Part shown: piece after piece, positions 9,949 to 39,474 of the stretch
How positions within the stretch are numbered: position 1 is the first letter of the stretch
Layout of the letters: every line of letters begins with the position of its first letter
Sequence record: OR539218.1
Origin: Escherichia phage vB-Eco-KMB26
Strand: one strand, 5' to 3'
Length of the DNA stretch: 64,000 bases
Position numbers and translations under genes: made by a program
Notes under the pieces: model-generated
Database searches by the model: none
Told to the model about the DNA's origin: nothing
The model's input: only the letters and a program-made list of their open reading frames with translations

Positions 9949-10419
9949 TTAATCATGTGTCCACACCCCATCGGTATTTGACCAAAGTCGCTGATTATCT
10001 GATCCTCGCCACAGCTTTTTGGTCGGAAGATTTTTCTCATACTTCCCATCAATAATAACATCAACATATTTAAGCATTTCTAGCTGTTTAATATCTTCAA
10101 ACTTATATCCTGTCCACAACCAAATGCTTTTATTGGGATAAAGATTTTTAATAGTTTGAACCACAGAGTGAATCACGTCTCTGTTATCAGGATAAAGAGG
10201 GTCACCTCCGGTTATAGTTAATCCTTCTATATAATCATTATTCAAACATTCAATCAATTGTTCTAGTGTTTCACCAGTGAATGGAATACCATTTCTAGCA
10301 TTCCATGTTGATTTATTATAACACCCTTCGCATTTATGCAAACAACCTGTAACGAAAAGAACGACCCTGCAACCAGGGCCATTCACAAAATCGCAAGGAT
10401 AAAATCTATCATAATTCAT
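9949..10419 (-). CDS. nrdG: Anaerobic ribonucleotide reductase activating protein (radical SAM)
   Basis: 156 aa; CLHKCEGC cluster; matches T4 NrdG. Confidence 0.9.
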   Translation of the reverse strand: MNYDRFYPCDFVNGPGCRVVLFVTGCLHKCEGCYNKSTWNARNGIPFTGETLEQLIECLNNDYIEGLTITGGDPLYPDNRDVIHSVVQTIKNLYPNKSIWLWTGYKFEDIKQLEMLKYVDVIIDGKYEKNLPTKKLWRGSDNQRLWSNTDGVWTHD

Positions 10420-12233
10420 TGATGCTTAACCCTATGCATGATTTCTTTATTTTTGCCGAGATTAAATCCGCGTTCGTTCGGATTTCCCAAATAACCACAT
10501 GTTCTTCTTATTGTGTTCATCTTTTTAGGATCAGTTTCTCCACAAATAGAACAAACAAATCCGTTTTCAGTAGGAGTCATTTCATGGGTACTTCCACATG
10601 TAAAACATTTATCTACTGGCATATTAACACCAAAATAATCTAAATGTTGTGCAGCATAATCCCAGACAGCCTCAAGACCTTTTAGGTTATTTTTCATATC
10701 AGGAAGTTCAACATAAGAAATGTGACCACCTGTCGCAATGAAATGATATGGCGCTTCACGAGAAATTTTTTCAAACGGAGTAATATTTTCTTCTACTGAA
10801 ACGTGGAAACTATTAGTATACCAGCCTTTATCGGTAACATCTTTTACACTTCCATATTTTTCTGTATCAAGTTTACAGAAGCGATAACAAAGGTTTTCAG
10901 CAGGAGTCGAATATAAACTAAAAGCAAACCCAGTTCTTTCAGCCCACTGTTTAAGACGAGCATTCATTTTAGTTAAAATTTCTTGTCCAATATCACGACC
11001 AACAAGAATATTCAATTCATGAATACCAATGTATCCTAAAGACACTGAACTTCTACCGTTTTTAAATAACTCAATTATGTCGTCATCAGGTTTAAGACGA
11101 ACCCCGAATGCACCTTCTTGGTAAAGAATAGGAGCAACAGTCGCTTTAACTCCTTTTAAGGAACTAATTCTACACATCAAAGCTTCAAAACATAAATCCA
11201 TTCGCTCATTGAACAATTCAGTAAATTTCTGTTCATTGAACTGTGTTCCAATATAAGAATCCAACGCAATACGAGGAAGATTCAGTGTTACAACACCAAG
11301 ATTATTACGTCCATCAAGAATTTCATTACCGGTTGAATCTTTCCACGCACTCAAGAAACTGCGGCAACCCATTGGAGAAACAGGAATAGATGAGCCGGTG
11401 ATAGCTTTATTGTTCTTAGCTGAAATAATATCAGGATACATCCTTTTGCTTGCACACTCTAGAGCAAGCTGCTTAATATCATAGTTCGGATCGTCTTTAT
11501 AAAGATTAACACCTTCTTCAACGAACATAACAAGCTTAGGGAAAATAGGAGTTATCCCATCACGACCGAGACCTTTAATACGATTTTTCAGAATTGCTTT
11601 CTGAATCATTCGTTCAGTCCAGTCAGTTCCCGTACCAAATGTAATTGTTACAAAAGGAGTCTGTCCGTTTGAACTAAAGAGAGTATTTACTTCATATTCA
11701 TAAGCTTGGAATGCATCGTATACATCTTTTTCTGTTTTAGATTGAGCATAATTTAACGCATCAGCGATTTGCCATTTTTCTGCATCCTCAATATGTTTTG
11801 CATAGGTGCGTTTAACATAAGGAGAAAGTATTTTATCTACATTCGCAAAAGTCGTTCCGCCGTATTGGTGAGAAGCAACTTGCGCAGTAATTTGTGCCAT
11901 AATTGCAGTAGCAACGCCAATTGATTTAGGAGTTTCAATCTGTGCATTACCAAGCTTAAATCCGTTTTCAAGCATTCCTTTTAAATCTACTAAACAACAA
12001 TTAGTAAATGGAAGAGCAGGGGAATAATCAATATCATGGAAATGAATAATTCCGCTTTCATGCGCTTTCATAATAAAAGACGGGACCATATTTTTGGCAA
12101 TGTGTTTAGACACAATACCAGCCATAAGGTCCCGTTGAGTTGGAAAAACACGAGAATCTTTATTAGCATTCTCGTTTAAAAGGTCTTTATTAGTTTTATG
12201 AATCAATCCTTCAATTTCTTTTTCAATTGTCAT
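10416..12233 (-). CDS. nrdD: Anaerobic ribonucleoside-triphosphate reductase, uninterrupted (no intron)
   Basis: 605 aa; C-terminal Zn ribbon and glycyl-radical motif RRTCGYLG; matches spliced T4 NrdD. Confidence 0.93.
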   Translation of the reverse strand: MTIEKEIEGLIHKTNKDLLNENANKDSRVFPTQRDLMAGIVSKHIAKNMVPSFIMKAHESGIIHFHDIDYSPALPFTNCCLVDLKGMLENGFKLGNAQIETPKSIGVATAIMAQITAQVASHQYGGTTFANVDKILSPYVKRTYAKHIEDAEKWQIADALNYAQSKTEKDVYDAFQAYEYEVNTLFSSNGQTPFVTITFGTGTDWTERMIQKAILKNRIKGLGRDGITPIFPKLVMFVEEGVNLYKDDPNYDIKQLALECASKRMYPDIISAKNNKAITGSSIPVSPMGCRSFLSAWKDSTGNEILDGRNNLGVVTLNLPRIALDSYIGTQFNEQKFTELFNERMDLCFEALMCRISSLKGVKATVAPILYQEGAFGVRLKPDDDIIELFKNGRSSVSLGYIGIHELNILVGRDIGQEILTKMNARLKQWAERTGFAFSLYSTPAENLCYRFCKLDTEKYGSVKDVTDKGWYTNSFHVSVEENITPFEKISREAPYHFIATGGHISYVELPDMKNNLKGLEAVWDYAAQHLDYFGVNMPVDKCFTCGSTHEMTPTENGFVCSICGETDPKKMNTIRRTCGYLGNPNERGFNLGKNKEIMHRVKHQ

Positions 12234-12703
12234 TTTAAACTCTTTCTAAGCTGCTTCTTGAATGAAGCTATTAATTGTGTTTTGGTGTCAGATTCATTAT
12301 ATTCAAATCCTCTTTGAAGCATCTCGGCCATCATTTCCTCTTTTCCGAAACGAGAAAATTCCTTTGATTTATCTCCAACAAAGTTAGGGTGAATATTATT
12401 TTGGGTGTAATCGGATTTTAAATAAGTAAGTAAATTTTCTAACCATTCAAGATAATCAACACCTTGTCCCTTTAAGCCAGAACGATTAAATTTATGCTTC
12501 ATTTGACCTTCTGCGGCATTGCATAGATTACAAAGCAATCCACGTACCTTTCCTGCTTTTGGTCCATTTAATTCATGGTCATGATCAAGATGATTAGCTT
12601 GAACATCAGGATTTAGTTCTCGTTGGCAAATTAAGCATTTACCGTTTTGTGCATTATAAAATTTTTGTTTTTCTTCTTTGTATAATTTGCCAGTCAATAA
12701 CAT
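12230..12703 (-). CDS. 49: Endonuclease VII (Holliday junction resolvase)
   Basis: 157 aa; Cys-rich Zn site plus HDHE; matches T4 gp49. Confidence 0.9.
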   Translation of the reverse strand: MLLTGKLYKEEKQKFYNAQNGKCLICQRELNPDVQANHLDHDHELNGPKAGKVRGLLCNLCNAAEGQMKHKFNRSGLKGQGVDYLEWLENLLTYLKSDYTQNNIHPNFVGDKSKEFSRFGKEEMMAEMLQRGFEYNESDTKTQLIASFKKQLRKSLK

Positions 12704-12745
12704 AATAAAACCCTTACCTTAAATAGATAAGGGTATTTATTATTT

Positions 12746-12922
12746 TTAAGTATTGTAAAACATTCGATGCAATCGTTTATACTGTCGAATCATCTTTTTA
12801 GTAGGACGAGAATAGGTTCCTACGCAAGTGGTCATATGAGGGTCCGTAGAATGTCCTTTAATAAAAAGTTTCCAAACCTTACCGCCATTTAACTTTTCAG
12901 TATAAACCAATTCGGTTTTCAT
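12746..12922 (-). CDS. Small ORF (58 aa) whose C-terminus (IRQYKRLHRMFYNT) duplicates the pin C-terminus
   Basis: Hand translation; below ORF-track cutoff; shares a 45-bp imperfect direct repeat with the pin 3' end. Confidence 0.4.
   Translation of the reverse strand: MKTELVYTEKLNGGKVWKLFIKGHSTDPHMTTCVGTYSRPTKKMIRQYKRLHRMFYNT
12747..12791. repeat. Copy 1 of a 45-bp imperfect direct repeat (copy 2 at 12960-13004)
   Basis: taagtattgtaaaacattcgatgcaatcgtttatactgtcgaatc vs caagtattataaaacatttgatgcaatcgcttatattgccgaatc. Confidence 0.8.
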
Positions 12923-12958
12923 TAAAATGTCCTGTCAGAAAAAGAATTTTGAGTTTTT

Positions 12959-13444
12959 TCAAGTATTATAAAACATTTGATGCAATCGCTTATATTGCCG
13001 AATCTTTTGGTCAGAAAAAGAAATTTGAGTTTCAAGCCATTCAATGTACTCTGCGGCAGCTTGCATCAGGTTACCTTCATAGCCATCGTTATTTTCTTGT
13101 GCAGCTAATTTAGCTAATGCGTATGAAATACGTTCACCTTGAAAATCGGCTTTAGGCTTCTGAACAACTTGATTAGTTCGCTCTACAACTTCTTCAATTT
13201 CGCCATTTTCGACTGATTCAGTATTCCACAAGCACCAATACGTAATTGGCTTATCGTAGATGTTAATAATCTTTCCGTCGGAAAGTTCAATTTCAATAAT
13301 TCCAGTGTCAGGCTCTATATCATCTTCACATTCTTTTACAAGTTCACGAACTTTAAAGACAGTACCTGCACTAAGTTCCGGCCAGTAATTACATAGCCCT
13401 GTATCAACACGATTAATTCTAAACCACTTATCTACTGTAATCAT
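12959..13444 (-). CDS. pin: Protease inhibitor Pin-like protein
   Basis: 161 aa from the GGAG-preceded ATG (MITVDKW...); size and position match T4 pin. Confidence 0.7.
   Translation of the reverse strand: MITVDKWFRINRVDTGLCNYWPELSAGTVFKVRELVKECEDDIEPDTGIIEIELSDGKIINIYDKPITYWCLWNTESVENGEIEEVVERTNQVVQKPKADFQGERISYALAKLAAQENNDGYEGNLMQAAAEYIEWLETQISFSDQKIRQYKRLHQMFYNT
12960..13004. repeat. Copy 2 of the 45-bp direct repeat (inside pin 3' end)
   Basis: See copy 1. Confidence 0.8.
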
Positions 13445-13566
13445 GTCCCATCTCCATATCAATTAAGTCATTTATCGTTGGTTCATTATATACTGTTTCT
13501 TCATCAGTGTAAACCGGTTCTTCCGGCTCTGGCTCTACAGTTTCCCATCTAGCCGCCCACCAAGGT

Positions 13567-13737
13567 TTAACCCCGAAGCTTATTAAGTTCTTCATAATCA
13601 ATCCAGGATTCTAATCCTGATGGCAAATCAGATTCAATTTCCCAAAGAAGCTCTTCAATTTTCTGAAGACGATCTAGTTCTTCGGCTGGAATAGTAACCA
13701 TTGACGGAGCTCGTGATACATTAATATCGTAAATCAT
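13567..13737 (-). CDS. Small acidic ORF (56 aa)
   Basis: Hand translation MIYDINVSRAPS...LNKLRG; fills the gap between flanking genes. Confidence 0.35.
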   Translation of the reverse strand: MIYDINVSRAPSMVTIPAEELDRLQKIEELLWEIESDLPSGLESWIDYEELNKLRG

Positions 13738-36156: not shown

Positions 36157-36186
36157 TTCATTCTCCAAGTTGTTTTTGTATCAGTA

Positions 36187-36278
36187 GTTGATAGTTGTAT
36201 AGTACCATGGAAGAACAGGGATGTAAACAGTTGTTGATAGTTGTATAGTACCATGGAAGAACAGGGATGTAAACAGTT
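36187..36278 (-). repeat. Exact tandem duplication (2 x 46 bp), each copy a complete early promoter
   Basis: gttgatagttgtatagtaccatggaagaacagggatgtaaacagtt occurs twice back-to-back (36187-36232, 36233-36278). Confidence 0.9.
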
Positions 36279-39106: not shown

Positions 39107-39127
39107 TTTATTCTCCTCAGTAGTAGA

Positions 39128-39164
39128 TAGGGTAATAGTATCACTACCCTATCTAAAAGTAAAC
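39128..39164 (-). promoter_or_regulatory. Early promoter (-35 GTTTAC, -10 ATACTATTAC variant)
   Basis: gatagggtaatagtatcac...gtaaac. Confidence 0.5.
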
Positions 39165-39398
39165 TTATTTTTTACGAAAAATTGATTTATTTTCTGCTGC
39201 CCATTTTTCAATAACTGCAGCAGGACCAGTAACAACAATTTTATCACCGTAATCTTCTGCGGCGAGTTGACCGAAATTATCTAATGCATCACGAAGAACT
39301 CCATGAGGCATTTCACCCATTTTATCTTTCTTGCCAGTGTAAATAAACTCAACTTTTACATCAGCAGTTTCAGCAATAAATTCTTGGTAAGTTTTCAT
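39165..39398 (-). CDS. Internal protein (IP-type) with exact capsid-targeting sequence MKTYQEFIAE (ORF track extends to 39410)
   Basis: N-terminal 10 aa identical to the T4 IP targeting sequence as recalled. Confidence 0.65.
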   Translation of the reverse strand: MKTYQEFIAETADVKVEFIYTGKKDKMGEMPHGVLRDALDNFGQLAAEDYGDKIVVTGPAAVIEKWAAENKSIFRKK

Positions 39399-39424
39399 TT
39401 TGATTTCCATTTGGTTTTGTTTTG

Positions 39425-39462
39425 ATAGGGTAATAGTATCACAACTAAAACCCTATGTAAAC
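39425..39462 (-). promoter_or_regulatory. Early promoter (-35 GTTTAC, -10 ATACTATTAC variant)
   Basis: gatagggtaatagtatcac...gtaaac. Confidence 0.5.
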
Positions 39463-39474
39463 AACTTTGTGAAA

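Follow-up and report, generated by a model that had tools for sequence, protein, structure and literature searches.

In the genome of Escherichia phage vB-Eco-KMB26, the gene pin and a small open reading frame (ORF) beside it end in nearly the same codons, and the question raised by this locus is to which of the two the shared tail belonged and how it came to be present twice. We analyzed a stretch of 64,000 nucleotides (nt) of this genome (OR539218.1), called the window below, which is a segment of a Tequatrovirus genome; positions are counted from its first letter. The pin gene (12959-13444, minus strand; 161 amino acids (aa) counted from the ATG) ends in IRQYKRLHQMFYNT, and the ORF (12746-12922, minus strand; 58 aa) ends in IRQYKRLHRMFYNT. 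The best explanation of this repeat, and one that we hold to be very probable, is that the variable locus separating pin from gene 49 underwent recombination twice in succession and that the repeat is the trace of these two events. As judged by sequence comparison, the tail passed from the small gene, a member of the DUF7279 family, to pin, which is the opposite of the direction proposed in an earlier reading of the same letters (the original prediction).

At an offset of 213 nt, 12746-12790 and 12959-13003 are identical at 39 of 45 positions without gaps, the match that the original prediction had reported, and over longer spans the identity is 43/50 (12742-12791) and 51/63 (12729-12791). The best pair of 45-mers lying 45-500 nt apart in 30 shuffles of the whole window reached 31/45, so chance similarity is excluded; the statistical check proposed with the prediction thus left the repeat standing well above chance. 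The homology runs on in the 5' direction past a 3-nt indel (AAAAG-ATG-ATT vs CAAAAG-ATT). The last codons of pin do recur at the C-terminus of the ORF at 12746-12922, as had been said. That this ORF lies upstream of pin holds for plus-strand coordinates only, whereas in the sense of transcription it lies downstream, between pin and gene 49.

A second repeat is interleaved with the first. The 27 nt that precede the pin tail (CTTGAAACTCAAATTTCTTTTTCTGAC, 13010-13036), which encode LETQISFSD, the last native pin codons kept, and align with the C-terminus of tail-less Pins, recur at 12920-12963, in the spacer of 36 nt that separates pin from the ORF. The two copies agree at 22 of 23 core positions, with one substitution and, as a gap, an AAA insertion in the spacer copy. 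We denote the pin body by A, the native pin 3' end by X, the body of the small gene by S, the 16-codon tail by T, and the intergenic block with the late-promoter-like sequence and hairpin of gene 49 by IG. T (12959-13009, QKIRQYKRLHQMFYNT, in frame on pin) is the upstream copy of the tail and T' (12746-12799, KKMIRQYKRLHRMFYNT) the downstream one, at the native 3' end of the DUF7279 gene; X' is the spacer copy of X. On the coding strand the order is X-T-X'-S-T'-IG-gene 49.

The 58-aa gene (RB32ORF078c) is an ordinary full-length member of DUF7279 (PF23945) and of phrog_3272. It scores 62.7 bits against the Pfam profile (cutoff 24.5), with residues 7-56 aligned to positions 1-53 of 53, and matches phrog_3272 with E = 3.4e-34, residues 1-58 being aligned to positions 1-58 of 59; the tail is included in both alignments. 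A tblastn search matched the gene in 369 phage records. It stands immediately upstream of gene 49, with its tail kept, in Tequatrovirus (HY01, JK45), Dhakavirus (JS10), Gaprivervirus (RZ), and Mosigvirus (ST0), and the DUF7279 gene has the same position in SP1 and JQD51. A tail-bearing homologue is also present in Gelderlandvirus UTK0003, gene 49 not being annotated beside it, which brings the Tevenvirinae genera known to have the gene to at least five. In these relatives the tail always follows the pattern RPTK[KR].[IL]R..KR.HR.F.., and the family alignment has invariant or nearly invariant columns at R39, P40, T41, K42, I45, R46, K49, R50, H52, R53, and F55. Conservation within the family is highest in the tail, where the rate of nonsynonymous substitution (dN) is lowest, and across genera the protein sequence of the tail is conserved while synonymous sites are saturated. 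For the small gene as a whole, the ratio of nonsynonymous to synonymous rates (dN/dS) against relatives is 0.08-0.22, and on these comparisons it is under purifying selection. An AlphaFold2 model of the 58-aa protein (mean predicted local distance difference test score (pLDDT) 75) has strands at residues 2-9, 15-22, and 31-37 and a helix at 42-56, a predicted fold of three beta-strands followed by a basic C-terminal helix that corresponds to the tail. A Foldseek search with this model against the Protein Data Bank gave no match below E = 0.2, and the segments resembling double-stranded RNA-binding domains among the top matches (template modelling score about 0.4) were not taken as evidence. 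We found no paper mentioning DUF7279 in a literature search.

In Pin the family match ends before the tail. The window protein matches PinA/Inhibitor_I24 (PF10465; 160.6 bits, cutoff 27) over residues 4-141 only, and its match to phrog_2167 stops at residue 146, residues 147-161 matching positions 44-58 of phrog_3272 instead; in T4 as in the window, the final 16 residues lie outside the family. Pins of other lineages have no such tail and end in ...SFSDRAF, ...EFSSKSF, or ...LERRLS. The native protein is 148 aa or shorter and ends in ...[RK]xF, most relatives making 136-148 aa, and among Pin homologues clustered at 90% identity there are 13 clusters of the 148-aa form vs 6 of the 161-aa form. 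The native family C-terminus (...WLE.Q..F..[RK]xF) is absent from the window and T4 pins, in which its last 2-3 residues are replaced by 16 residues of DUF7279. In the window it persists only as the non-coding remnant X', whose old frame reads LEKTQNSFSDRTF and which has the TAATG stop/start overlap at its end. Because of these profile boundaries and the tail-less Pins of other lineages, we regard the tail as native to DUF7279 and foreign to Pin.

These results bear directly on the original prediction, in which the pin C-terminus was partly duplicated into the small ORF, or created it, so that the ORF would be a pin fragment or a by-product. In its favor are the 87% DNA identity of the two tails and the RB32 GenBank note, whose annotators had already listed the ORF as 'similar to ... 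pin'. However, the pin-like part of the ORF is limited to its last 16 residues, the ORF with its tail is present in more than one genus in which pin is tail-less or absent, and the family profile to which it belongs from end to end includes the tail, while the Pin profiles and divergent Pins stop short of it. Purifying selection on the ORF also argues against a fragment. The reading is refuted by this distribution together with the profile boundaries, and we give it almost no weight; as far as the sequences tell, the ORF is a real accessory gene. Comparison with relatives had been suggested in the prediction itself, and it returned the outcome named there as speaking against a duplicated pin C-terminus, a conserved independent gene that keeps its tail.

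The way in which pin acquired the tail can be read from T4 and HY01. T4 has no small ORF, and its pin, with the stop codon 41 nt from the start of gene 49, is still 161 aa long. At the junction HY01 reads ...TCTGACCGA GCATTTTAATG...AAAAAG ATGATTCGA and T4 reads ...TCTGACCGA ATGATTCAG; in a longer alignment, HY01 has ...TCTGACCGA GCATTTTAATGAAAAC...CCTACTAAAAAG ATGATTCGACAA... and T4 has ...TCTGACCGA ATGATTCAGCAA.... The locus measures 290 nt in HY01, 153 nt in T4, and 366 nt in the window, and the step from HY01 to T4 is a 137-base pair (bp) deletion. Pin is joined in frame to DUF7279 codon 44, the native ...R-A-F end being replaced by 16 foreign residues, and the T4 PinA of 161 aa is accordingly a chimera. 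The window pin has the same junction as T4, GAC-CAA-AAG-ATT, two point changes away, and every pin tail has Q where DUF7279 has the invariant R53, which argues that this junction (J1) arose once. The comparison shows an ancestral layout A-X(...DR[AT]F)-TAATG-S-T-IG-49, in which the stop codon of a tail-less, 148-aa pin overlaps the start of an independent DUF7279 gene of 56-61 aa whose basic C-terminal helix is the tail. The 137-bp deletion then fused pin codon ~146 to DUF7279 codon 44, at the junction GACCGA/ATGATTC, with the T4-type layout A-X-T-IG-49 as its product.

The window has, in addition to a chimeric pin, the intact DUF7279 gene. From X' we predicted a donor with the ancestral layout and a pin ending in ...DRTF, and a search then found it in phage SP1 (MT682709.1). 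The SP1 pin is 148 aa long and ends in ...ETQNSFSDRTF, with the TAATG overlap intact, and its 3' end carries the same CTTGAAACTCAAAATTCTTTTTCTGACAGGACATTTTAATG as the window X', minus the AAA. The DUF7279 genes of SP1 and the window differ at 3 of 177 nt and at 0 amino acids. The window pin body, on the other hand, has 12 differences to T4 and 22 to SP1 in 438 nt, and the window T is separated by 3 differences from the HY01-type T' but by 6 from its own T'. Since the pin body and T resemble T4/HY01 alleles and X'-S-T' is SP1-like, the window/RB32 haplotype is a mosaic. Both T, at its end (ACTTGAAAATAA), and X, at its start (GGCTTGAAACTC), contain the heptamer CTTGAAA. We infer with some firmness that unequal recombination between a T4-type and an SP1-type genome, joined beside CTTGAAA, produced the window/RB32 layout A-X-T-X'-S-T'-IG-49, with a T4-type left arm and an SP1-type right arm that starts inside the old pin 3' end. 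Such an event would leave a pin that is chimeric, 36 nt of the native pin end as a dead remnant, and an intact DUF7279 gene, hence the T/T' and X/X' repeats 213 bp apart. The Shine-Dalgarno sequence of the small gene, AGGA, now lies in X', and the 5' end of X' contains the T-X' junction (J2), CTTG-AAAAAA-CTC. The idea that the clustered changes from CGAGCA to AGGACA in X' were selected because they made the Shine-Dalgarno sequence stronger after translational coupling had been lost was rejected, as SP1 has AGGACA as coding sequence (DRTF).

BLAST queries with the T-X' junction found it in 113 phage records; such queries were used for the census because IMG/VR scans with the small ORF and with pin were of little use (6 loci each, mostly copies of isolate genomes). 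There are 116 records with a small ORF at least 95% identical to that of the window, and the 113 junction records are essentially all of these, so that J2 arose once and then spread widely. By coverage class, about 272 records match T only, the T4-type pattern, and roughly 60-75 have the ancestral layout. Three pin-tail alleles of RB32-type genomes each have an identical T4-type counterpart: QM..H is found in RB32 and in the T4-type phage Solly, QK..H in the window and ZN18-like phages and in the T4-type phiD1 and e11/2, and QK..N in ECO4 and in the T4-type RB14, teqskov, and G8-like phages. ECO4 also has a window-like S together with an HY01-like T'. Because the same alleles occur in both layouts and because of this combination in ECO4, the layouts must have been repeatedly exchanged or interconverted. 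Homologous recombination between T and T' (87% identical, about 50 bp) would remove precisely 213 bp and restore the arrangement of T4, a conversion that may have run in either direction.

Several further rearrangements are found at the locus. In sutha and SP21535 the small gene is cleanly lost by a 169-bp deletion between TTTTAAT and TTTTACAAT (TTTTA(C)AAT), and EP32a has no DUF7279 copy next to gene 49. A Logan contig contains an independent in-frame fusion of another Pin lineage to another DUF7279 tail, ...EYLERR/FHRDFYNVY, at an ACGTTT microhomology. A second DUF7279 paralogue lies upstream of pin in JK45, JQD51, EP32a, and the L036 locus, and in JK45, JQD51, and the Logan contig pin stands between two paralogues. 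In JK45-like phages (loci L004, 906-1680; L024 from JQD51, 179-953; L036, 1329-1926) paralogue a ends in ...RSHRNFYREY and paralogue b in ...RFHRDFYNVY. ST0 (L005, 1501-1671) has no pin and a single DUF7279 gene with the body of a and the tail end of b (...RSHRNFYNVY), the crossover lying in ACTTTTATA. Comparison of ST0 with JK45 implies that the pin module was gained or lost by tail-to-tail recombination. A 191-aa protein with DUF7279 and Pin domains (P0043) was considered as a fusion of the small gene to pin and rejected, since it stems from another event, in which DUF7279a, the upstream paralogue, reads through into pin. The losses in sutha, SP21535, and EP32a, the Logan fusion, and the ST0 chimera support in substance the suggestion of the original prediction that a hotspot for module exchange adjoins gene 49, and its 'recombination scar' is borne out in the form of a two-junction footprint at the repeat.

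As part of Pin, the tail seems to be a passenger that is tolerated. Residues that never vary in DUF7279 are replaced in pin tails (R53Q in all, H52N in many, R46Q in T4) and tail-less Pins are abundant, which suggests relaxed constraint. An AlphaFold2 model of the chimeric Pin (mean pLDDT 61; tail about 50) shows the tail, at low confidence, as an extension of the last helix.

Several points weigh against the account given so far. The T-X' junction has six A's (CTTG-AAAAAA-CTC), three more than a clean crossover in CTTGAAA would leave; the exact breakpoints are therefore uncertain, and slippage or a non-homologous join at this point is possible. Ordinary allelic recombination in the 24-43 bp that separate the polymorphic sites from J2 explains the shared T alleles as well as recurrent 213-bp deletion does, and the layouts were counted by class of BLAST coverage instead of by extraction of every genome. 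The passenger status rests on a few substitutions, 4 of the 5 coding differences between the window T and T' are synonymous (P about 0.005-0.045), and none of the pin tails read is truncated, so that some constraint may act on the pin tail. In addition, a different order of events, in which X-S-T was duplicated in tandem, the first S was deleted, and the T4 type then arose by T/T' recombination, is an alternative that yields the same final structure and is opposed by the divergence pattern alone. It costs one more step and leaves the presence of a T4/HY01-like T and pin body beside an SP1-like X'-S-T' unexplained. We prefer fusion by deletion followed by re-acquisition from an SP1-type genome. 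A mobile element with target-site duplication or a homing-endonuclease cassette was also considered and rejected: the 213-bp unit encodes DUF7279 only, with no transposase or endonuclease gene, and the repeats, being 45-50 bp long, imperfect, and traceable to two parental alleles, are not short exact target duplications.

The synonymous excess and the intact tails lead to the question of whether the tail is instead a portable functional peptide, a basic amphipathic helix binding Lon, nucleic acid, or another partner, whose capture was selected and of which both copies are needed. The in-frame tail is kept in roughly 385 database genomes (T4-type and RB32-type), a different Pin lineage independently captured a DUF7279 tail in frame, and the tail forms a helix in the DUF7279 model and prolongs the last helix in the Pin model. 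However, the substitutions at DUF7279-invariant positions in pin tails, the many tail-less Pins of Tequatrovirus (the 13 clusters against 6), the cases in which the small gene was cleanly lost and no fusion arose, and the low pLDDT of the Pin tail speak against it, and the synonymous excess comes in part from constraint on T' in its own gene and from the divergence of the two donors. We judge this reading unlikely. Because of the synonymous differences, the lack of truncated tails among those read, and the second independent capture, we leave a small chance that the tail contributes some function on Pin. A bolder form, in which the C-terminal helix of DUF7279 is a transferable module and its double capture by Pin altered the action of PinA on Lon or added a second binding activity, seems to us doubtful; if it were true, the protein used in all PinA biochemistry would be an atypical chimera and DUF7279 would act in the same host-takeover pathway. 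That the repeat is a regulatory cassette (promoter, terminator, or a promoter/stem-loop cassette (PeSL)-like element) overlapping coding sequence is very improbable. It does flank an accessory ORF as PeSLs do, the window pin copy contains TATAAT, and T' abuts the late promoter and hairpin of gene 49. Most alleles, however, have TACAAT in place of TATAAT, no sigma-70-type promoter was found at 12600-13200 (shuffle mean 1.9), and the single stem-loop is the gene 49 hairpin, which is present once and outside the repeat. The differences between T and T' follow codon structure, and the conservation of the tail as protein at saturated synonymous sites is likewise not what a regulatory cassette predicts. 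A promoter or terminator inside the repeat was accordingly rejected, none having been found there in the search of 12600-13200.

The locus is a well-resolved new instance of known phage mosaicism, that is, of ordinary modular shuffling. Of the mechanisms described, the nearest is the PeSL-mediated shuffling of T4-type phages (Arbiol et al. 2010, PMC2839356; Comeau et al. 2014, PMC4122927), in which an accessory ORF lies between direct repeats, a single chimeric repeat is found in relatives, and a mini-circle may be excised (PMC2839356). Here, too, short direct repeats surround a small accessory ORF in a variable region and relatives have a single chimeric repeat and no ORF, as seen between the RB32 type and the T4 type with their shared T alleles; the JK45 type and ST0, with its a/b chimeric tail, give a further case of a chimeric repeat. 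Recombination between the repeats would excise the cassette, which here measures 213 bp, and insertion could take place by the same reaction in reverse; T/T' may possibly be an excision/integration site that moves the DUF7279 cassette as a 213-bp circle. The repeats of the window differ in that they are not promoter/stem-loop cassettes, which define PeSLs (no promoter-like site at 12600-13200, and the one stem-loop outside the repeat), but the coding 3' end of the accessory gene, with one copy fused to the neighboring gene. As far as can be told from sequence alone, the duplication would stem from an illegitimate join, not from the spread of a mobile regulatory element. Coding tails may thus act as recombination linkers besides PeSL regulatory cassettes.

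In-frame deletion fusions of adjacent T4 genes are known, the classical example being r1589, which joins rIIA and rIIB. As in r1589, a deletion running from the end of one gene into the start of its neighbor leaves a functional chimeric protein; the pin fusion differs in being natural, in its fixation in much of the genus, T4 itself included, and in that the deleted gene was later re-acquired. Both parental types, T4-type and SP1-type, are still identifiable for this natural series of deletion, fusion, and re-acquisition. For work on PinA, the consequence is that the reference T4 protein (161 aa) ends in 16 residues from another gene family and that its C-terminal helix extension is not family-wide, for which mapping of the Lon-binding surface or modelling of PinA complexes should allow. 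Inhibition of E. coli Lon protease by T4 PinA was described by Skorupski 1988 and Hilliard 1998, as cited in PMC8835725, which summarizes PinA biochemistry and the open question of the mode of Lon binding. The C-terminus is not addressed in the PinA literature consulted, including the passages on PinA in PMC8835725, and we found no paper calling T4 Pin a chimera. For annotation, the 58-aa ORF should be recorded as a conserved gene (DUF7279) and the 36-nt spacer as a dead pin remnant.

All genes of the locus lie on the minus strand: nrdD, gene 49, the 58-aa ORF, pin, and then the small genes of the 49.1-nrdC region. From 12100 to 13600 the window shares 100% identity with phages YUEEL01, PYps14T, and EC101; with RB32 the identity is 98.3%. 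Gene 49 (endonuclease VII; 12230-12703, 157 aa) is conserved, lies downstream of the variable locus, and is annotated in the same way in the identical and near-identical phages and in T4. A late-promoter-like sequence with a putative function in late transcription, AATAATAAATA (12734-12744, minus strand), was read directly after the stop codon of the DUF7279 gene; JK45 and ST0 have a perfect TATAAATA in its place. A stem-loop search found the hairpin ACCCTTATCTATTTAAGGTAAGGGT (12710-12734, minus strand), which includes the Shine-Dalgarno sequence of gene 49, in the block IG after the DUF7279 tail, and this sequence is near-identical in T4, HY01, JK45, JS10, and ST0. The hairpin is said to sequester the gene 49 ribosome-binding site in early transcripts. 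The nrdD gene (10416-12233) is a single uninterrupted ORF of 605 aa; in T4 (L001, 3536-6386) it is split by a group I intron encoding I-TevII, with mobC before it, and the lineage of the window has no nrdD intron. Two genes upstream of pin, a 56-aa gene (13567-13737) is labelled 'antitoxin from a toxin-antitoxin system' in several RefSeq/PHROG-based annotations of identical phages, a label that we give as annotated. The same label was considered for the 58-aa ORF and rejected, since the neighboring records put it on the 56-aa gene.

Other forms of pin were seen in relatives. VIPECOOM01 (L025, 344-814) has a 1-nt deletion in the pin 3' end (TCTAACGAGCG), which causes a frameshift; its pin is annotated with 156 aa and a 26-nt overlap with the small gene. 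In Dhakavirus JS10 (L003, 1029-1504) the C-terminal helical region of Pin is a separate 57-aa gene (...AADYIHWLEAQLRFSDEAF) that precedes a 100-aa gene resembling the N-terminal domain (...FWCFWTNDD...), so that Pin looks split and permuted. Gaprivervirus RZ (L022, 762-935) has the 57-aa piece only, annotated as a Lon inhibitor. A 142-aa protein from an ENA metagenome (P0036) is T4-type Pin over its first ~83 residues and continues with an unrelated segment that matches PF00717 (peptidase S24-like); it may be a natural chimera or an assembly artefact.

Repeats also occur elsewhere in the window. A near-perfect 46-bp tandem repeat at 36182-36278 (2.1 copies, 98% matches, consensus CAGTTGTTGATAGTTGTATAGTACCATGGAAGAACAGGGATGTAAA) is apparently intergenic, between ORFs ending at 36168 and 36380. 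The region at about 39126-39470 holds several direct repeats that are imperfect and offset by about 298-334 nt, identical at up to 38 of 45 positions from 39429.

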